Positions 34,437 through 43,484 of a stretch of DNA of 64,000 bases are shown one piece after another. The notes below the pieces were generated by a model. The model did no database searches, had not been told where the DNA came from, and saw nothing but the letters and a program-made list of their open reading frames with translations. Position numbers and translations under genes: made by a program. The DNA is from Pasteurellaceae bacterium (lineage in GTDB: Bacteria > Pseudomonadota > Gammaproteobacteria > Enterobacterales > Pasteurellaceae): the NCBI GenBank assembly GCA_900756155.1, contig CAAEJV010000018.1:32251-96250 (forward strand), read 5' to 3'. The first letter of the stretch is position 1; each line of letters begins with the position of its first letter.

Positions 34437-34508
34437 TTGGTTCGATTGGTAAAGTGCAGTAATATATTGCATTATTTAAAAACGCTACTCGGAACAATAA
34501 GGAATAAT

Positions 34509-35990
34509 ATGCAAACGAATAATAACTGTATCGTAATTTTTGGTGCTTCTGGTGATTTAACACATCGCAAACTCATTCCAGCACTTTATAATCTTTTCAA
34601 ATTTGGGCGTTTAAACCAATTTTCTGTATTGGGTGTTGCTCGCACAGAATTAAACGATGACACTTTCCGTGAGAAAATGCGCGAAGCACTTCTTCAAACA
34701 GAAGAAACTACGCCTGAAACGCTCGAAGAATTCTGTAACCATCTCTATTACCAAGCGGTAAACACATCTGATGCTGCCGATTATGGAAAATTAGTCCCTC
34801 GTTTAGAAGAATTACATACTAAATATCAAACGAATGGCAACACGCTTTATTACATGTCCACCCCGCCAAGTTTATATGGTGTGATTCCAGAATGTCTTGC
34901 AGCTCATGGTTTAAACACAGAAGAAGACGGTTGGAAACGGATTATTGTGGAAAAACCTTTTGGTTACGATGAAAAAACAGCACAAGAACTCGACGTTCAA
35001 ATTCATCGTTTCTTTGAAGAGCATCAAATCTATCGTATCGACCATTATCTTGGTAAAGAAACCGTACAAAACTTACTTGTTTTACGCTTCTCAAATGGTT
35101 TATTCGAACCGCTTTGGAACCGTAATTACATTGATTATGTCGAAATTACGGGAGCCGAAGCCATTGGTGTGGAAGAACGTGGTGGCTATTATGATGGTTC
35201 CGGTGCAATGCGTGACATGTTCCAAAACCACTTACTACAAGTTCTTGCCATGGTTGCCATGGAACCACCTGCTATCATTAATGCGAACTCAATGCGTGAT
35301 GAAGTAGCCAAAGTCATGCACTCTTTACGTCCATTAACGCAAGATGACGTTGAGCATAATTTAGTGCTTGGTCAATACATTGCAGCAGAAATTGATGGCA
35401 AAGAAGTCAAAGGTTATTTACAAGAAAAAGGCGTGCCTTCTAACTCTCGCACTGAAACCTTTATGGCTTTACGTTGCGAAATCGAAAACTGGCGTTGGGC
35501 GGGCGTACCTTTCTATGTACGTACCGGTAAACGCTTACCGGCACGTGTGACGGAAATTGTGATTCATTTCAAAACCACACCACATCCTGTATTCAGTCAA
35601 AATGCACCAGAAAATAAATTGATCATCCGTATTCAACCCGATGAAGCGATTTCAATGCGTTTCGGCTTGAAAAAACCAGGGGCAGGCTTTGAAGCAAAAG
35701 AAGTGTCAATGGATTTCCGTTATGCTGATTTAGCCGATGACCAAGTCCTGACGGCTTATGAGCGCTTATTGCTCGATGCGATGAAAGGTGATGCGACACT
35801 CTTCGCTCGTACTGATGCCGTTCATGCTGCATGGAAATTCGTTCAACCAATTTTAGACTACAAAGAAGCAGGCGGCCGAGTTCATGAATATGAAGCAGGT
35901 ACTTGGGGACCTGTTGCGGCGGAAAAACTTATCGCGAAAAGTGGTCGCGTATGGCGTAAACCAAGTGGCAAAATGAAGAAAAAGGTTTAA
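34509..35990 (+). CDS. zwf: glucose-6-phosphate 1-dehydrogenase
   Basis: [20 protein letters not shown] is the NADP-binding N-terminus, with the active-site region RIDHYLGKE. The ATG at 34509 follows RBS AAGGA; the track ORF is extended by 24 codons. Confidence 0.95.
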
Positions 35991-36001
35991 TCATTAATCG
36001 C

Positions 36002-36032
36002 AAGCCTTCTTCCCTACAAGCGGAAGAAGGCT
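36002..36032 (+). other. stable stem-loop in the zwf-pgl intergenic region (no T-run)
   Basis: agccttcttcc-ctacaagc-ggaagaaggct. Confidence 0.4.
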
Positions 36033-36058
36033 TATATCCAATATAAAGAGAAGCAAAC

Positions 36059-36757
36059 ATGAACACCATCACCTTCCCAACGGCTCAACACACTGTTGAA
36101 AAGATCGCCCAAGAATTTGTGATTTATAGCCAATTAAATCATCCTGTACATATTTCCCTTTCTGGTGGTTCAACGCCTAAGTTGTTATTTAAAACCTTAG
36201 CCAAAACGCCTTATGCGGAACAAATTAACTGGAAAAATCTGCATTTTTGGTGGGGTGATGATCGCATGGTTCCACCAACAAATTCAGAAAGTAACTATGG
36301 CGAAGTGCAAAAACTCTTATTCGATCATATTCAAATTCCAACGGAAAACATCCACAGAATTCGTGGCGAAAATGAACCGCACTTTGAACTAAAACGCTTC
36401 GAAGAAGAATTAAGTGCGGCCATTCCAAACGGTGTTTTTGATTGGATCATTTTAGGCATGGGAACGGACGGCCACACTGCTTCTCTCTTCCCTCATCAAA
36501 CCAATTTTGATGACGAAAATCTTGCCATCATTGCAAAACACCCTGAAAGCGGTCAAATCCGCATTTCTAAAACAGCCAAACTCATTGAACAAACCAAACG
36601 CATTACCTATTTGGTAACCGGCGAAAGCAAAGCGGATATTTTAAAAGAAATCCAAACGACTCCTGCAGAAAATCTGCCTTACCCTGCTGCCAAAATTAAA
36701 GCAAAAAATGGGGTGACGGAATGGTATTTGGATAAAACGGCGGCAGCATTATTGTAA
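36059..36757 (+). CDS. pgl: 6-phosphogluconolactonase (DevB type)
   Basis: HISLSGGSTPK and GMGTDGHTASLFP motifs of the NagB/DevB fold. Confidence 0.88.
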   Translation: MNTITFPTAQHTVEKIAQEFVIYSQLNHPVHISLSGGSTPKLLFKTLAKTPYAEQINWKNLHFWWGDDRMVPPTNSESNYGEVQKLLFDHIQIPTENIHRIRGENEPHFELKRFEEELSAAIPNGVFDWIILGMGTDGHTASLFPHQTNFDDENLAIIAKHPESGQIRISKTAKLIEQTKRITYLVTGESKADILKEIQTTPAENLPYPAAKIKAKNGVTEWYLDKTAAALL

Positions 36758-36784
36758 TACGCCCATCCCAAAAGGAACTTCGAG

Positions 36785-37813
36785 ATGAAAAAAGTATTGT
36801 TATTAACTTTATTGCCAGTAGCAGCAATGGCCACTTCAATCCAAGGTATTGGAGAAAACTACCAAGATTGGGATTTAGTATGTGATAACACGGGCACTTG
36901 TCGTATGGCAGGTTATCAGGATGAAAGTAGTGACCCAGTCTCTATTTTATTTACTCGTGCGGCAGGCGAAAATGCTGCAGTGGAAGGAAAGTTCACTATT
37001 TTACCATTCGGAGAAACCGACCGTGATGTTCAAGTCGGTCAAGATATTGAAATTTGGTTAAATGGCAAATCATTAGGCACAGTCAAGCATATTTCTGACG
37101 ACGCGCCAGATAAGCTGACTGAAGAGCAAACTAAGGCATTACTTAGCGGATTGAAAAAAGAGAGCGAAATTCGTCTCACCTATGGGAAAACCACGCTTAA
37201 AGTGTCAGACAAAGGCGCAGCGGCAGCCATGCTCAAAATGGATGAATTCCAACAACGACTAAATACCCCTTCCGCACTCATTCGCCAAGGTCAAGAAAAA
37301 CATGCGGTATTAGCGCCACAGGCTGCACCAAAAGTTGAGGCTGTTAGCGTGAACAACCGTAAAACAATAGAATTAAAACGCGGTGAAAAACAATTTAATC
37401 ATGTGTTAGCACTGTTACGTAAAGCTAATAGCTGTGATGATGAGGATATAACAAGCCAAGATATAACACTTTATCCCTTAACACAAAACAAGGTATTAGC
37501 TGAAGCACTCTGTGTTAGAGGTGCTTATCAAGGCACTAATTACTATGCTGTACTTGATAATAAATTGAGCAAAGTAGAACAAGTCTTGGCGGAGCAATAC
37601 AACAGAGCAGAATATGATGAAAAACAAGGTTATGCGTTTGTAAGAGGTACTTACAAAGGACGTGGAGTTGGCGATTGCTGGAGCAGTCAAGATGCGGTAT
37701 GGAATGGCAAAATCTTTATCCGCACCTCAGAATGGACAACGGGATCTTGCAAAGGATTTCCTGGTGGCGCATGGCAGTTGCCTACTTTCGTCAGTGATAT
37801 CATCGTAAAATAA
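36785..37813 (+). CDS. secreted Cys-containing protein of unknown function, tandem paralog 1 of 3
   Basis: Signal peptide MKKVLLLTLLPVAAMA. Conserved blocks YQDWDL.CDNTGTC.MAGYQ, DEFQQRLNTPSALIRQGQEKHAVLAPQ and WNGKIFIRTSEWTTGSCKGF.GGAWQLP. About 85% aa identity to copy 2. Confidence 0.85.
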   Translation: MKKVLLLTLLPVAAMATSIQGIGENYQDWDLVCDNTGTCRMAGYQDESSDPVSILFTRAAGENAAVEGKFTILPFGETDRDVQVGQDIEIWLNGKSLGTVKHISDDAPDKLTEEQTKALLSGLKKESEIRLTYGKTTLKVSDKGAAAAMLKMDEFQQRLNTPSALIRQGQEKHAVLAPQAAPKVEAVSVNNRKTIELKRGEKQFNHVLALLRKANSCDDEDITSQDITLYPLTQNKVLAEALCVRGAYQGTNYYAVLDNKLSKVEQVLAEQYNRAEYDEKQGYAFVRGTYKGRGVGDCWSSQDAVWNGKIFIRTSEWTTGSCKGFPGGAWQLPTFVSDIIVK

Positions 37814-37884
37814 ACAAACAACACGCGCTTATAAACGGTTAGATTTTACGAATTTTTGCAAATCTTCTTTTAGGAATTTATAAC

Positions 37885-38922
37885 ATGAAAAAAGTTATTC
37901 TTCTCTCATTATTACCATTTACTGCAATGGCAGCTTCAACATCAATCAAAGGTATTGGAGAAATCTACCAAGATTGGGATTTAATCTGTGATAACACGGG
38001 TACTTGTCGCATGGCGGGTTATCAAGAGAATAGAGATGATCCAGTGTCCATTTTATTTACTCGAGAAGCAGGCGAGAATACACCAGTGGAAGGAGAACTG
38101 ACCATTTTACCATTCGGTGAAAATGACCGTGATATTCAAGTCGGTCAAGATATTGAAATTTGGCTAAACGACAAATCATTAGGCACTATCAAGCATATTT
38201 CTGATAGCAATCCAGATAAACTCTCTGAAGAGCAAACCAAGGCAATACTTAGCGGATTGACAAAAGAAAGCGAAATTCGTCTTACCTATGGTAAAACCAC
38301 GCTCAGAGTGTCTGATAGAGGTGCCGCGGCAGTAATGCTAAGAATGGATGAATTCCAACAGCGGTTAAACACACCTTCGGCGCTCATTCGTCAAGGTCAA
38401 GAAAAACATGCGGTATTAGCGCCTCAGACTGCACCCAAAATTGAGGTGGCAAGTGTGAATAACCGCAAGAAAATAGGATTAAAACGCGGCGAAAAACAAT
38501 ACGATAACGTGCTAGCATTATTACGTAAAGCTTACAATGGTTGCAAGGATGAAGATGAAGTAAGCCAAGATATAACGCTTTATCCCTTAACACAAAATAA
38601 GGTCTTAGCCGAGGTACTTTGTGTCAGAGGTGCTTATCAACGCACTAATTACTATGCAGTACTTGATGACAAATTGAGTAAAGTAGAACAAATCTTGGCG
38701 GGGCTGTATAACGAAGCAGGCTATGATGAAAAACAAGGTTATGCATTTGTAAGAGGTACTTACAAAGGCCGCGGATTAGGTGATTGCTTGGGGGGGCAAG
38801 ATGCCGCATGGAATGGCAAAATCTTTATCCGCACATCAAAATGGACGACTGGATCTTGTAAAGGTTTTGGCGGTGGCGCATGGCAGTTGCCGATTTTCGT
38901 CAGTGACATTGTCGTAAAATAA
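37885..38922 (+). CDS. secreted Cys-containing protein of unknown function, tandem paralog 2 of 3
   Basis: Same architecture as copy 1. The 71-bp upstream spacer is also duplicated. Confidence 0.85.
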   Translation: MKKVILLSLLPFTAMAASTSIKGIGEIYQDWDLICDNTGTCRMAGYQENRDDPVSILFTREAGENTPVEGELTILPFGENDRDIQVGQDIEIWLNDKSLGTIKHISDSNPDKLSEEQTKAILSGLTKESEIRLTYGKTTLRVSDRGAAAVMLRMDEFQQRLNTPSALIRQGQEKHAVLAPQTAPKIEVASVNNRKKIGLKRGEKQYDNVLALLRKAYNGCKDEDEVSQDITLYPLTQNKVLAEVLCVRGAYQRTNYYAVLDDKLSKVEQILAGLYNEAGYDEKQGYAFVRGTYKGRGLGDCLGGQDAAWNGKIFIRTSKWTTGSCKGFGGGAWQLPIFVSDIVVK

Positions 38923-38993
38923 ACACACAACACATCCTTACAAATAGTTAGATTTTACGAATTTTTTACAAATCATTTTTAAAAATTTATAAA

Positions 38994-40049
38994 ATGAAAA
39001 AATATCTTCTTCTCTCATTATTACCACTCACTGCAATGGCTGCGCCATCGTTAAAAGGGTTTGAAAAGACTTATCAAGACTGGGATTTGATCTGTGATAA
39101 TACTGGCACTTGTAATATGGCGGGTTATCAAGAAGAAAGAGATGGCTCCGAGCATCCTGTTTCGATTTTATTTACTCGAAGTGCGGGGGAACAAGCACCG
39201 GTGACAGCTCAGTTAGCATTATTACCAGATGATGTGGGTAATAAAACGGCTGAAATTATCTTAAATGGTCAATCACTCGGTACCGTTCCAAATATTTCAG
39301 AAGATGGGAATGCAAAATTAAGTGAAAAACAAACAACAGAATTACTCACTGCACTAAAAGGGAATGCAAGTATTGAAGTGATTTTTGGGGAGTTTAAGGA
39401 GAAAGTCTCTGATAAAGGTGCAGCCGCCGCGATGCTCAAAATGGATGAGTTTCAACAACGTTTAAATACGCCTTCCGCACTTATTCGCCAAGGTCAAGAA
39501 AAACATGCGGTATTAGCGCCACAGGCTGCACCCCAAATTGATGCTGTCAGCGTGAAAAATCTCCAAACAACAGAGTTAAAGCGTGGCGAAAAACAGTTTG
39601 ATGCTGTATTAGCGTTATTGCGTAAAAGTAATGGGACGAATGAAAATTCAGAGAATTACTGCCCTGAGTTGCATAAAGATGATACTTGGCGTGACGATAT
39701 AACAATTCATACTCTTACCAATGGCAAAGTGTTAGCAGAGTCAATATGTTGGAGTGGCCCTTATCAATACTCTAATTATTATGCTGTTATGGATGAAAAA
39801 CTCAGCAAAGTAGAACAAGTACTAGCAAGTCAATATAACGATGTTATGTATGATAATAGAACCCCCGTCTTAGCTGTAATAGGTTCATTTAAGTCGCGGG
39901 GGATTGGTGATTGTTGGATTAGGAAAGAAGCTGCCTGGAATGGCAAAATATTTATCCGTACTTCAGAATGGACAACCGGCTCTTGTAAAGGTTTTACTGG
40001 TGGAGCGTGGCAGTTGCCGATTTTTGTGAGCGATATTAAGGTAAAATAA
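38994..40049 (+). CDS. secreted Cys-containing protein of unknown function, tandem paralog 3 of 3 (divergent)
   Basis: Same signal peptide and conserved end and linker blocks, but roughly 60% identity in the two inner segments. Confidence 0.85.
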   Translation: MKKYLLLSLLPLTAMAAPSLKGFEKTYQDWDLICDNTGTCNMAGYQEERDGSEHPVSILFTRSAGEQAPVTAQLALLPDDVGNKTAEIILNGQSLGTVPNISEDGNAKLSEKQTTELLTALKGNASIEVIFGEFKEKVSDKGAAAAMLKMDEFQQRLNTPSALIRQGQEKHAVLAPQAAPQIDAVSVKNLQTTELKRGEKQFDAVLALLRKSNGTNENSENYCPELHKDDTWRDDITIHTLTNGKVLAESICWSGPYQYSNYYAVMDEKLSKVEQVLASQYNDVMYDNRTPVLAVIGSFKSRGIGDCWIRKEAAWNGKIFIRTSEWTTGSCKGFTGGAWQLPIFVSDIKVK

Positions 40050-40095
40050 TTTATTTGTTTTATCTTTAACATCATGAAGAGCATAGAGTAAAAAA

Positions 40096-40488
40096 ATGAT
40101 CGACTACAAAGTTAACGAACCGATTTCAGTCAAACAATTTATTGCACTGCTAAATAAAACAACGCTCGGGGCACGCCGTCCGTTAGAGGATGAAAATCGT
40201 GTCGCAGCAATGTTGCACCATGCAGATTTATTAATCACCGCTTGGGATGGTGAACGATTAGTGGGTGTGGCACGTTCCGTGACAGATTTTGCCTACTGCT
40301 GTTATTTATCTGATTTAGCGGTTGATGAACAATATCAAAAACAAGGTATCGGCTTGCAGTTAATTGAACACACCAAACAGGCGTTACATCCACAAGCTAA
40401 AATTGTGCTTTTATCGGCTCCGCAAGCCGTGGATTATTATCCGCATATTGGATTTACTCAACACATGAGTGCGTGGACGAAGAGTTAA
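40096..40488 (+). CDS. GNAT-family N-acetyltransferase
   Basis: 130 aa with acetyl-CoA-binding motif A: QYQKQGIGLQLIEH. Confidence 0.75.
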   Translation: MIDYKVNEPISVKQFIALLNKTTLGARRPLEDENRVAAMLHHADLLITAWDGERLVGVARSVTDFAYCCYLSDLAVDEQYQKQGIGLQLIEHTKQALHPQAKIVLLSAPQAVDYYPHIGFTQHMSAWTKS

Positions 40489-40514
40489 TTTATTAGAATG
40501 ATATGGTGACAAAA

Positions 40515-40931
40515 ATGAAAAAACTGTTTGTACTACTTACTTCAACTTTGTTATTTGCTTGTTCATCTGGTCCATCTTTAGATCAGTTAGCGGCACAAAT
40601 GCCAAAAGATAATCGCTCAGTAATGCTTCAAGTTCCAGAAGCAGGAAACCCAGTTTCAAATGGAATGCTTGTAGCAACGATTAGAACCGCAGGTGGTACT
40701 TCAGGAAAACGACTCGTATCTCTTTTAGCTACAAATAATTTACACATTGGAATTGCAGGGAACAGTCAATCTGTGAATAAAGCAGTTGCTATGCATGGAC
40801 TAAATAATGCAGAAAAGGTCGGTAAGGATGTATCTTTATACCTTGTTGGAGATAGTGAAAGTGATAAGGCAGATCTAGAAAAAGCCGCAAAAGCGAAAAA
40901 TGTAGAAATGCATTACATTATGCAAAAATAA
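40515..40931 (+). CDS. hypothetical lipoprotein
   Basis: Lipobox LLFAC-SSG; the mature protein of about 120 aa has no recognisable domain. Confidence 0.5.
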   Translation: MKKLFVLLTSTLLFACSSGPSLDQLAAQMPKDNRSVMLQVPEAGNPVSNGMLVATIRTAGGTSGKRLVSLLATNNLHIGIAGNSQSVNKAVAMHGLNNAEKVGKDVSLYLVGDSESDKADLEKAAKAKNVEMHYIMQK

Positions 40932-40947
40932 GAGATAGATACATCAA

Positions 40948-41295
40948 ATGCGGAGTGACTTAATGTTGAATTTAGATAATAAAAAATTTGTTGCTGTTGA
41001 AAACACCGCAAATGGTGAGGTCAGTAGTCAAACAGAATTTCATTACCATCAACAAGGTAAAATGATTTGGGCAGAATATGGTGGCGGTGAAATTTTAAAA
41101 GGCTTTTTAATTGGAAAATGGATTGACGATACTCAAATTGAATTTACGTATCAACATTTAAATCAATCTCTAGAAAATCGTTTGGGGCGTTGCTGTACAA
41201 CATTTTCTTTAGAAAAAAGTAAACTCGTCGGTCATGAAAAATGGCAGTGGCTAGACACGTTAGAGCAAGGCAGCTCTTTAATTAGAGAAATTTAA
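40948..41295 (+). CDS. hypothetical cytoplasmic protein
   Basis: 115-aa ORF 16 nt after the lipoprotein gene. No signal peptide and no identifiable motif. Confidence 0.4.
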   Translation: MRSDLMLNLDNKKFVAVENTANGEVSSQTEFHYHQQGKMIWAEYGGGEILKGFLIGKWIDDTQIEFTYQHLNQSLENRLGRCCTTFSLEKSKLVGHEKWQWLDTLEQGSSLIREI

Positions 41296-41312
41296 AAGAA
41301 ATTTTGTTATAG

Positions 41313-41468
41313 AATATCAGAAACAAGGTATCGGCTTGCAGTTAATTGAACACACCAAACAGGCATTACATCCACAAGCCAAAATTGTGCTGTCATCCGC
41401 TCCACAAGCGATAGATTATTATCCGCATATTGGAGTTACTCAACATATGAGTGCGTAGGCTAAGAGTT
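41313..41468 (+). pseudogene. duplicated 3' fragment of the GNAT acetyltransferase gene (roughly 93% nt identity to 40333..40488) with an in-frame TAG
   Basis: ...cagaaacaaggtatcggcttgcagttaattgaacacaccaaacagg... repeats the GNAT C-terminal coding sequence. Where GNAT has gcg tgg acg, the fragment has gcg TAG gct. Confidence 0.75.
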
Positions 41469-41479
41469 AAAAAACGCTT

Positions 41480-41583
41480 GGAAAAGTGACCACACTTTTC
41501 CGTAGCAAGAAGATGGATTACTGATAGCGCACGCTTCATAGCGTGTGCTTGTAGATAAAGGCACACGTTGGGAAACGTGCGCC
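41480..41583 (+). other. cluster of three GC-rich hairpins with mutually exclusive alternative pairings (candidate attenuator or structured leader RNA)
   Basis: Hairpin A: ggaaaagtg-acca-cacttttcc. Hairpin B: agcgcacgct-tcat-agcgtgtgct. Hairpin C: ggcacacgtt-ggga-aacgtgcgcc. The left arm of B can also pair with the right arm of C. Confidence 0.35.
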
Positions 41584-41614
41584 ATCGTAGGGTTTCATCA
41601 GGGAATAACATAAA

Positions 41615-42013
41615 ATGAAACTTAAAAAAATTGATTATTGCGAACTAAATCCCAAACAAAAAGAAATTTATAATTTCCAAAAACTAGCGGGAATATTGGC
41701 TGATTATGGCTTTAATTGTATTAAATTATCTGATGACTGGAATGGTGCTGATTTTCTTGCATATCATAAAGATCACAATGAAACTTTAAGGGTTCAATTA
41801 AAAGGTAGATTAACTATTGCTAAAAAATATCTTAACAAAGGTTTGCACATCGCTTTTCCGATAAAACAGCAATGGTGTTTAATTGAACATGACATACTCG
41901 TAGAACTTGTCAAAACTCACACTGAATGGAAATGGGAAGATGAAGGTATTCGTCATCCACCAACAGTTCCACAAAAATTACTATCTTTATTAGAAGAATA
42001 CATGATTTCTTAA
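41615..42013 (+). CDS. hypothetical protein (orphan, 132 aa)
   Basis: Soluble ORF ending just before gnd. No recognisable family. Confidence 0.45.
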   Translation: MKLKKIDYCELNPKQKEIYNFQKLAGILADYGFNCIKLSDDWNGADFLAYHKDHNETLRVQLKGRLTIAKKYLNKGLHIAFPIKQQWCLIEHDILVELVKTHTEWKWEDEGIRHPPTVPQKLLSLLEEYMIS

Positions 42014-42029
42014 AAAACAGGAGCAAAAA

Positions 42030-43484
42030 ATGTCAGTAAAAGGCGACATCGGTGTTATCGGCTTAGCCGTAATGGGGCAAAACCTCATTTTAAATATGAA
42101 TGATCATGGCTTTAAAGTCGTGGCATATAACCGTACCACTTCAAAAGTGGATGAATTTTTACAAGGTGCGGCAAAAGGCACCAATATTATCGGCGCATAC
42201 TCTTTAGAAGATTTAGCTTCTAAATTAGAAAAACCACGTAAAGTGATGTTAATGGTGCGCGCGGGTGATGTGGTGGATCAATTCATTGATGCTTTATTGC
42301 CACATTTAGAAGAAGGCGACATCATTATCGATGGCGGTAACTCAAACTATCCGGACACAAATCGTCGTGTAAAAGCATTGGCTGAAAAAGGCATCCGCTT
42401 TATCGGTACCGGTGTTTCCGGTGGTGAAGAAGGCGCGCGCCATGGGCCTTCTATCATGCCGGGTGGAAATCATGAAGCATGGCCATATGTTAAACCTATC
42501 TTCCAAGCAATCTCTGCTAAAACCGAACAAGGCGAACCTTGCTGTGACTGGGTTGGCGGTGAAGGCGCTGGCCACTTTGTGAAAATGGTTCACAATGGTA
42601 TCGAATATGGCGATATGCAATTAATCTGTGAAGCTTACCAATTCTTAAAAGAAGGTTTAGGCTTAAGCTATGAAGAAATGCAAGCGATCTTCGCAGAATG
42701 GAAAAAAACTGAACTTGATAGCTATTTAATCGATATCACCACCGATATTCTTGGTTATAAAGATGCTGATGGTGAACCATTAGTTGAAAAAATCTTAGAT
42801 ACCGCAGGCCAAAAAGGAACAGGTAAATGGACGGGTATCAATGCATTAGATTTTGGTATTCCATTAACCTTAATCACTGAATCTGTCTTTGCTCGTTGTG
42901 TCTCTTCATTTAAAGATCAACGTGTTGCCGCTAATCAATTATTCGGCAAAACAATTCAACCGGTTGAAGGCGACAAAAAAGTGTGGATTGAAGCAGTACG
43001 TAAAGCATTATTGGCGTCAAAAATCATTTCTTACGCACAAGGCTTTATGCTGATTCGTGAAGCCTCTGAACAATTTGGCTGGAACATCAACTACGGCGCA
43101 ACAGCGTTGCTATGGCGTGAAGGTTGTATTATCCGTAGCCGTTTCTTAGGTAACATTCGTGATGCATATGAAGCAAATCCAGATTTAATCTTCTTGGGTT
43201 CAGATAGCTACTTCAAAGGCATTTTAGAAAACGCATTAAGCGACTGGCGTAAAGTGGTGGCAAAATCTATCAAAGTGGGCATTCCAATGCCATGTATGGC
43301 ATCTGCGATTACGTTCTTAGATGGCTACACATCAGCACGCTTACCAGCAAACTTATTGCAAGCACAACGTGACTACTTCGGTGCTCACACTTATGAACGT
43401 ACTGATAAACCACGTGGTGAATTCTTCCACACCAACTGGACAGGTCGCGGTGGCAACACAGCATCTACCACTTATGATGTGTAA
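42030..43484 (+). CDS. gnd: 6-phosphogluconate dehydrogenase (decarboxylating)
   Basis: N-terminal Rossmann GVIGLAVMGQNLILN and catalytic region GEGAGHFVKMVHNGIEYGDMQLI; 484 aa. Confidence 0.97.
   Translation: MSVKGDIGVIGLAVMGQNLILNMNDHGFKVVAYNRTTSKVDEFLQGAAKGTNIIGAYSLEDLASKLEKPRKVMLMVRAGDVVDQFIDALLPHLEEGDIIIDGGNSNYPDTNRRVKALAEKGIRFIGTGVSGGEEGARHGPSIMPGGNHEAWPYVKPIFQAISAKTEQGEPCCDWVGGEGAGHFVKMVHNGIEYGDMQLICEAYQFLKEGLGLSYEEMQAIFAEWKKTELDSYLIDITTDILGYKDADGEPLVEKILDTAGQKGTGKWTGINALDFGIPLTLITESVFARCVSSFKDQRVAANQLFGKTIQPVEGDKKVWIEAVRKALLASKIISYAQGFMLIREASEQFGWNINYGATALLWREGCIIRSRFLGNIRDAYEANPDLIFLGSDSYFKGILENALSDWRKVVAKSIKVGIPMPCMASAITFLDGYTSARLPANLLQAQRDYFGAHTYERTDKPRGEFFHTNWTGRGGNTASTTYDV

Follow-up and report, generated by a model that had tools for sequence, protein, structure and literature searches.

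A tandem array of three old DUF1176 (YpfG-family) genes between pgl and gnd in a Haemophilus of the parainfluenzae group

The pgl-gnd locus and its three DUF1176 genes

The stretch of DNA analysed here (the window) is a 64,000-nucleotide segment of a Pasteurellaceae genome (NCBI GenBank assembly GCA_900756155.1, contig CAAEJV010000018.1, positions 32,251 to 96,250). Our subject is an array of three co-oriented open reading frames (ORFs) on its + strand between zwf-pgl and gnd, lying where an earlier note made from the sequence alone had placed them (Table 1). All three encoded proteins match the Pfam family PF06674 (DUF1176) over its full length, from profile position 2-4 to 321 of 322, with 215.6, 195.0 and 202.1 bits against a gathering threshold of 34.8 bits. 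Because all three match this one model full-length at E values of 1e-57 to 1e-63, their resemblance is far above chance, and it is practically certain that the array consists of three old tandem paralogs from the family of DUF1176 and E. coli YpfG, and that the genome is that of a Haemophilus in the parainfluenzae group. The exact copy 1 protein is already public as 'DUF1176 domain-containing protein [uncultured Haemophilus sp.]', and is found on more than 300 public contigs.

Copies 2 and 3 share 83% and 65% amino acid identity with copy 1, and the pairwise DNA identities of the three repeat units are 83%, 65% and 65%. Direct repeats run across the array with a period of 1097-1127 nt, and the two spacers are identical at 58 of 72 positions. 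Copy 1 starts 27 nt past the pgl stop codon and every copy is preceded by a Shine-Dalgarno-like AGGA(A). Within the spacers a consensus scan found no + strand promoter or terminator and folding gave no stable RNA structure (z = 0.95 and -1.33), with only sub-threshold noise from Rfam; co-transcription of the array with zwf-pgl seems plausible. The upstream flank consists of cysQ, zwf and pgl; on the other side the array is followed by genes for a GNAT, a lipoprotein-like and an avidin-like protein, then by a 132-amino acid ORF and gnd. NCBIfam models identify zwf (TIGR00871), pgl (TIGR01198) and gnd (TIGR00873). A mobile-element origin was considered and rejected, as the GC content of the array (40.4%) is the same as that of its flanks and no genuine phage or plasmid association was seen; tblastn matches in phage and plasmid collections were Acinetobacter records labelled phage, chromosome-sized records and large plasmids, at 24-35% identity.

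Each gene product is predicted to be exported by the Sec route as a soluble protein, with about 325 residues in its mature form. The leaders of all copies follow the pattern MKK(V/Y)(L/I)LL..LLP..AMA, a Sec-type signal peptide with an AxA motif and no lipobox, and each copy ends in FVSDI.VK. No catalytic motif, beta-barrel C-terminus or outer-membrane targeting signal was found in the array proteins, which also match no enzyme or transporter family. The earlier note had described tandem paralogs of exported, cysteine-conserving proteins lacking a catalytic motif, a lipobox and a beta-barrel C-terminus, and this is borne out, as is the invariance in all three copies of the conserved blocks it quoted. 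Its count of five conserved cysteines falls short by one: each protein has six, the sixth (C217 in copy 1) being displaced by an indel in copy 3 and near-invariant across the family. The six probably form three periplasmic disulfides. The guess of a DUF1176-like protein proved correct (full-length PF06674, E 1.6e-63 to 3.1e-57), and the Pfam check recommended there gave no characterised enzyme or transporter family. The idea of a novel family has to be given up, however, since this is a catalogued Pfam family which includes YpfG, comprises about 1,250 clusters at 50% identity (E <= 1e-3) and ranges over Alpha-, Beta- and Gammaproteobacteria.

Table 1. Coordinates of the DUF1176 array, its parts and the adjoining features in the window
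Feature	Position	Strand	Remarks
DUF1176 copy 1	36785..37813	+	342 aa; module types N1 and C7; PF06674 E 1.6e-63, profile 3-321/322
Signal peptide, copy 1	36785..36832	+	residues 1-16, MKKVLLLTLLPVAAMA; AxA motif, no lipobox Cys; cleavage site inferred
N-terminal IalB-like domain, copy 1	36848..37249	+	residues ~22-155; holds hairpin W29-C33-D34-N35-C39-G43-Y44
Central invariant block, copy 1	37238..37321	+	MDEFQQRLNTPSALIRQGQEKHAVLAPQ, residues 152-179; junction of module recombination
C-terminal alpha/beta domain, copy 1	37331..37810	+	residues 183-342; Cys 217, 243, 298, 322
Spacer 1	37814..37884	.	71 bp; Shine-Dalgarno-like AGGAA
DUF1176 copy 2	37885..38922	+	345 aa; module types N1 and C6; PF06674 E 3.1e-57
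Central invariant block, copy 2	38344..38427	+	identical in three copies
Spacer 2	38923..38993	.	71 bp
DUF1176 copy 3	38994..40049	+	351 aa; module types N6 and C9; PF06674 E 2.2e-59
Central invariant block, copy 3	39441..39524	+	identical in three copies
GNAT gene	40096-40488		
Lipoprotein-like gene	40503-40931	+	142 aa; lipobox-like LFACSS; no family match
Avidin-like gene	40948-41295	+	115 aa; related contigs record PF26421 Avidin_like
Slot, avidin-like gene to gnd	41296-42029		contents differ among contigs
GNAT pseudogene fragment	41312-41467	+	52 codons of GNAT 3' end; 88% aa identity; internal stop
Two terminator-like hairpins	41480-41583	-	strong; stems 10 and 9 bp

Copy number, age and module shuffling

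Copy number was surveyed in the interval from pgl to the GNAT gene or gnd in one-genome-per-species representatives (L numbers are our handles for the sequences compared). A single copy is present in A. kilianii PN_491 (L013), two copies in L004, L008 and L009, three in the window, L005, L010 and L011, four in L002, five in L001 and seven in H. sputorum CCUG 13788. A. kilianii PN_528 (L014) has one full copy and a 30-amino acid fragment, displaced to between the avidin-like gene and gnd. Spacers in the related arrays are mostly 71-72 bp, and every copy is intact unless cut by a contig end, with no internal pseudogenes. Within the lineage of the window, all ten independent metagenome contigs that encode exact copy 1 carry the 342/345/351-amino acid array (354 amino acids in one). 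The earlier note had suspected a hotspot of change and had suggested comparing the pgl-gnd interval across Haemophilus and Aggregatibacter; the related genomes indeed carry 1-7 copies rather than an invariant single one, and the slot beside gnd varies too.

Its 'triplication', understood as a local and recent event, does not stand. Copies 1 and 2 are separated by a synonymous divergence (dS) of 0.64, and copy 3 stands at about 1.5 from the others, so that recent duplication is rejected, and the copies are of distinct module types which have been reshuffled among species. The closest relative of copy 3, at 95% amino acid identity, occupies position 2 of the four-gene array of L002 (L002.2). The ratio of nonsynonymous to synonymous divergence (dN/dS) is 0.155-0.195 among the window copies. 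Computed by region over 42 complete Pasteurellaceae copies, it is lowest in the central block (0.056) and reaches 0.22 in the N-variable segment and 0.26 in the C-variable segment (0.34 in recent pairs). No region exceeds 1 (range 0.06-0.34), which indicates purifying selection throughout and rejects region-wide positive selection.

When clustered at 80% identity, the N-terminal and C-terminal segments fall into 7 and 9 types respectively, of which 13 combinations were seen. One chimera, L012.2, is 93% identical to copy 1 of the window (W.1) in its N segment, 100% in the centre and 53% in its C segment, and against L002.4 the corresponding values are 43% for N and 99% for C. There are 57 pairs with N identity of at least 90% and C identity of at most 65%, and 11 pairs in which the converse holds. 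Among the window copies, third-codon-position identity is 85-90% in the central block and 35-65% elsewhere; the C-terminal block, which is as conserved at the protein level, reaches only about 60%. As the central block is the only stretch of high third-codon identity, this points to homogenisation or recombination at the DNA level there.

Array cassettes also seem to pass from one species to another. When the window is compared with H. sputorum, dS is saturated for zwf and pgl and 0.73-0.93 for gnd and the GNAT gene, compared with 0.33-0.60 for the array genes; within the H. parainfluenzae group the reverse pattern is found. The window contains 37 Hin-type uptake signal sequences (AAGTGCGGT) and 3 of Apl type, which is consistent with natural transformation and with a competent Haemophilus. 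The three DUF1176 genes themselves contain none, and the nearest lie at 36376 (in pgl) and 43527. A test for phase or antigenic variation found mosaic recombination between the copies. It found no simple-sequence repeats inside or before the three genes and no silent truncated cassettes, and all copies have a start codon, a Shine-Dalgarno-like site and a signal peptide.

Tandem DUF1176 arrays are not confined to Pasteurellaceae and have arisen independently in unrelated lineages. An environmental Zoogloeaceae-like metagenome contig (L024, 4345-9077) carries four tandem DUF1176 genes that are 53-71% identical, three of them nearly abutting and the fourth following after a 313-bp gap. Their proteins have the conserved hairpin and central block seen in Haemophilus, and the neighbours on the opposite strand are acyltransferase, VanW and ketoacyl-synthase genes. 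Several further contigs carry two or three copies, and Lonepinella has two.

The region between the array and gnd has its own history. The slot between the avidin-like gene and gnd is a second hotspot, changing faster than the adjoining array: its contents differ among contigs L034-L043, which otherwise match the window lineage. It encodes 132 amino acids in the window and L035, 176 in L034, L036-L038, L041 and L043, a 112-amino acid DUF1375 protein in L039 and 213 amino acids in L042; in L040 a single 185-amino acid gene stands in place of the slot and of both genes before it, the lipoprotein-like and the avidin-like one. Among related genomes these two genes come and go independently of each other. 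Directly after them lies a pseudogene fragment corresponding to the GNAT 3' end, also found in L005, L008, L009, L011 and L012, which looks like the scar of the insertion or duplication that introduced these two genes. At the two terminator-like hairpins the window has no minus-strand ORF of at least 80 amino acids; in L035 a 72-amino acid minus-strand gene was called at the equivalent position.

The wider family and its predicted structure

A family alignment (A2) of 119 sequences, including the three window copies, was built from a distant betaproteobacterial homolog as seed. Invariant in it are W29, C33, D34, N35, C39, G43 and Y44 of the N-terminal disulfide hairpin, G61 and G144, then D153, Q156, R158, T161, A164 and G169 of the central block, P182, and C243 and W306 of the C-domain, where C217, C298 and C322 are near-invariant. 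An AlphaFold2 model of copy 1 based on this alignment has a predicted local distance difference test score (pLDDT) of 88.4 and a predicted template modelling score of 0.86, residues 1-15 being below a pLDDT of 50. It shows a beta-rich N-domain (about 22-155), a long well-ordered coil (156-182) and an alpha/beta C-domain (183-342). Internal duplication as the origin of the two halves was rejected, as they are non-homologous (hhalign probability 5%). Sequence searches of the PDB were empty, both with a single protein and with the family profile.

As modelled, the DUF1176 N-domain has the fold of IalB, without a sequence-level link to the IalB Pfam family (PF06776), and the C-domain has no close solved structural relative. 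Copy 1 has no match to PF06776 at E up to 10, nor have four homologs labelled 'IalB' by the Joint Genome Institute at E up to 1, and the DUF1176 profile did not retrieve the IalB structure 3dtd from the PDB sequences. Like the array proteins, Bartonella IalB (PDB 3dtd, PF06776) and Sinorhizobium meliloti RgsG are exported to the envelope, and no biochemical activity is known for them. IalB, however, is a single domain of about 140-190 amino acids with no detectable sequence relation to DUF1176, which has in addition the invariant central block and a second, unrelated domain of 160 amino acids. A further structural relative is 8z5n_A, part of the flagellar T-ring as solved with the Vibrio LPHT ring, which judging by its length and beta-rich fold is probably MotY. 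Pasteurellaceae are not known to be motile, and the array differs from this protein in having no flagellar context, OmpA-like C-domain or sequence similarity.

Outside Pasteurellaceae the DUF1176 gene is usually solitary and lies in differing, unrelated neighbourhoods. We examined two Zoogloeaceae-like contigs, Serratia, Formivibrio, three further contigs from metagenomes or metagenome-assembled genomes (MAGs), E. coli and ten Haemophilus contigs, and found no conserved partner gene or shared neighbourhood across them. The gene adjoins speF/potE in Serratia and gatB in a Zoogloeaceae MAG, and the small ORFs upstream of it in Serratia and in Zoogloeaceae are unrelated to one another. In Formivibrio citricus (L027, 6001-7065) it starts 10 nt past a 1,187-amino acid AsmA/DUF748 (lipid-transport-like) gene on the same strand, a single case of a possible operon. 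E. coli K-12 ypfG (L033, 2581734-2582777) is the convergent neighbour of talA-tktB. DUF1176 genes therefore lie beside pentose-phosphate genes in two distant Gammaproteobacteria, as E. coli ypfG and as the Haemophilus array (with its flanks, window positions 34437-43484); this may be coincidence, because other family members sit elsewhere.

Domain fusions were surveyed in P0266, P0300, P0280, P0331 and P0306/P0371/P0377, our handles for proteins of the DUF1176 family. In P0266, DUF1176 is joined to two LprI/DUF1311 'lysozyme inhibitor' domains (26.5 bits, with the cut-off at 22), and the other fusions involve Sel1, WG repeats and beta-helix/Ig domains. A C-terminal extension of about 350 amino acids, which has a DLDNDGKRD motif and no Pfam match, is common to three 50%-identity clusters. 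A Pfam scan of copy 1 for lysozyme-inhibitor families (Ivy, MliC/PliC, PliI, PliG, LprI) at E up to 10 gave DUF1176 and noise only, and the three array proteins had no matches in NCBIfam, PADLOC or PHROGs.

In the literature searched we found no function, mechanism or arrays given for DUF1176, and no mention of PF06674 or IPR009560. Inhibition of LolCDE upregulates E. coli ypfG (b2466) 38-44-fold, together with classical genes of the Rcs regulon (PMC5105897), and disruption of rcsB downregulates it 4.6-fold (PMC5343319). Exposure to complement also raises it (PMC4145685). Carbapenems raise the ypfG transcript together with ivy (a lysozyme inhibitor gene) and ymgD, and raise YpfG at the protein level as well, the protein being reported as periplasmic in proteomics. 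YpfG resembles the array proteins in its full-length PF06674 match, its size, its signal peptide and the family-invariant Trp, Cys, Asp, Asn and Arg residues. It differs in being encoded by a single-copy gene, as opposed to a tandem, module-shuffled and copy-number-variable array, and shares 24% identity with copy 1; Rcs-type induction cannot be assumed for Haemophilus. A DUF1176 protein of Brucella is a component of immunoreactive brucellin extracts (PMC12343572), and RgsG is an essential periplasmic IalB-domain protein of the polar growth complex of S. meliloti (PMC7327166).

Possible functions of the array proteins

Our tentative proposal, which we hold to be quite possible though short of probable, is that the array proteins are non-enzymatic periplasmic binding or inhibitor proteins which together make up an envelope-protecting repertoire. 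A constant function, e.g. docking to a conserved envelope component, would reside in the invariant hairpin of the N-domain and in the central block, and the divergent parts of both domains would confer differing target specificities, so that the array would in turn be a repertoire. Lineages would retain 1-7 functional copies, homologous recombination across the central block, which is conserved, would generate new N/C combinations, and cassettes would spread among naturally competent Pasteurellaceae. The likeliest candidate targets would be exogenous envelope attackers, such as peptidoglycan hydrolases of the host or of competitors and bacteriocin-like toxins. This proposal is suggested by the two structural relatives, both docking modules, together with the lack of an enzyme signal, by the maintenance of each diverged copy (dN/dS 0.06-0.34, no internal pseudogenes), and by the place of YpfG in an envelope-stress regulon and the LprI fusion in P0266. 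That the proteins behave as a repertoire is suggested by the range of 1-7 copies, the reshuffling of modules, the exchange across species and the independent recurrence of arrays.

Two groups of known proteins are similar to what is proposed. The lysozyme inhibitors (Ivy, MliC/PliC, PliI and PliG, and LprI/DUF1311) are likewise small, exported, often disulfide-bonded and non-enzymatic, and are linked to the family through the co-induction of E. coli ivy with ypfG and through the one DUF1176 protein fused to two LprI domains. However, the window proteins belong to none of these families by sequence, their structural similarity to them is marginal, and the known inhibitors do not occur in shuffled tandem arrays. 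Orphan immunity-gene arrays of type VI secretion systems (T6SS), contact-dependent growth inhibition (CDI) systems and bacteriocins are similar in organisation, being tandem, diverged, copy-number-variable, horizontally exchanged and intact sets of genes for small exported proteins. In contrast to these, the DUF1176 members examined have no toxin or secretion gene beside them, and DUF1176 is a conserved chromosomal gene of many Proteobacteria without mobile-element association.

Several points weigh against a binding repertoire. DUF1176 and IalB-family proteins have no known ligand or target, and the inhibitor-like matches are weak. The LprI fusion is a single cluster. No arms race is demonstrated, because no region has a dN/dS above 1, and turnover of the array is slow, given its constancy in ten of ten contigs of the window lineage. 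No toxin, T6SS, CDI or other secretion gene was found beside family members, in contexts that are few compared with about 1,250 clusters, and neither the PADLOC defence models nor the PHROGs phage models gave matches. The regulatory evidence from YpfG transfers poorly, because of the 24% identity and because the Rcs system is not known from Pasteurellaceae.

Some of the same observations can be read otherwise. The array proteins could be structural or scaffold proteins of the envelope, i.e. periplasmic interaction modules for peptidoglycan or outer-membrane organisation, as RgsG is at the growth pole or the MotY N-domain in the T-ring; extra copies would then be dosage or condition-specific isoforms, and their diversity the product of neutral drift and recombination. 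We consider this rather unlikely, although it deserves serious attention. It is in keeping with the essential role of RgsG in the polar growth complex (PMC7327166), purifying selection in all regions with no positive selection, the induction of E. coli ypfG by envelope stress, the Formivibrio gene 10 nt past an AsmA/DUF748 gene, and the stability of the three-gene array within the window lineage. However, it leaves unexplained the long retention, interspecies sharing and recombination of distinct module types as well as the independent arrays of diverged copies (53-71% identity), and no neighbourhood examined holds a conserved partner gene. The earlier note had named a secreted or surface-interaction family as a candidate. 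On such a reading the proteins would be surface-exposed or released, acting in host interaction or as antigens, in line with the role in invasion ascribed to Bartonella IalB, and their diversity would be driven by host immunity in the mouth and airways. The IalB fold of the N-domain, the presence of a Brucella DUF1176 protein in immunoreactive brucellin extracts (PMC12343572) and the hypervariable, horizontally exchanged, multi-copy locus typical of surface antigens all fit. We nevertheless hold this to be decidedly unlikely: there is no outer-membrane, lipobox, beta-barrel or autotransporter signal and no secretion-system neighbour, phase-variation repeats are absent, dN/dS is well below 1, the E. 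coli protein is periplasmic, and Betaproteobacteria from environmental or gut sources likewise have the family and arrays of it.

That the array encodes periplasmic enzymes or sugar-binding proteins with a functional link to pentose-phosphate or carbohydrate metabolism is very improbable. Such a link would be favoured by the place of the array, which begins 27 nt from pgl in the zwf-pgl to gnd interval without a predicted terminator, and by the convergence of E. coli ypfG with talA-tktB, and the invariant W29, D34, N35, Y44, D153, Q156, R158, T161 and W306 would suit a sugar-binding site. However, the enzymes of the pentose-phosphate pathway are cytoplasmic and the array proteins are exported, other family members lie in unrelated neighbourhoods, the A. 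kilianii PN_528 gene is displaced from pgl, and there is no likeness to any enzyme or solute-binding fold.

The binding repertoire can also be put in a bolder and more specific form, which we regard as unlikely though worth stating. DUF1176 arrays would be a so far unrecognised kind of periplasmic 'innate immunity' repertoire, consisting of two-module inhibitors on an IalB-like scaffold, recombined across an invariant junction to neutralise differing envelope-attacking proteins (host lysozyme-like enzymes, peptidoglycan hydrolases of competitors, bacteriocins), with cassettes traded among oral Pasteurellaceae. If true, E. coli YpfG would gain its first biochemical function, and the IalB fold would indirectly gain one too.

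Two things appear not to have been described before: arrays of two-module genes that recombine, vary in copy number and recur in unrelated lineages, and an IalB-like fold for the N-domain. DUF1176/YpfG is a widespread proteobacterial envelope family, and its E. coli member is among the strongly induced envelope-stress genes. The Haemophilus locus provides a natural experiment on this family, with intact diverged paralogs, a two-module architecture, an invariant junction and natural chimeras. If the modules set target specificity, swapping them would open the entire family to direct functional tests, and could shed light on the IalB proteins of Bartonella, Brucella and Rhizobiales, which are related in structure. 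If instead the paralogs are redundant structural proteins, the finding becomes that of an ordinary multigene family. The locus may have a further use, in metagenomes from the mouth and gut, as a marker of lineages in the H. parainfluenzae complex. We do not regard it as a system of a new kind; its value lies in the access that it gives to an orphan family of envelope proteins.

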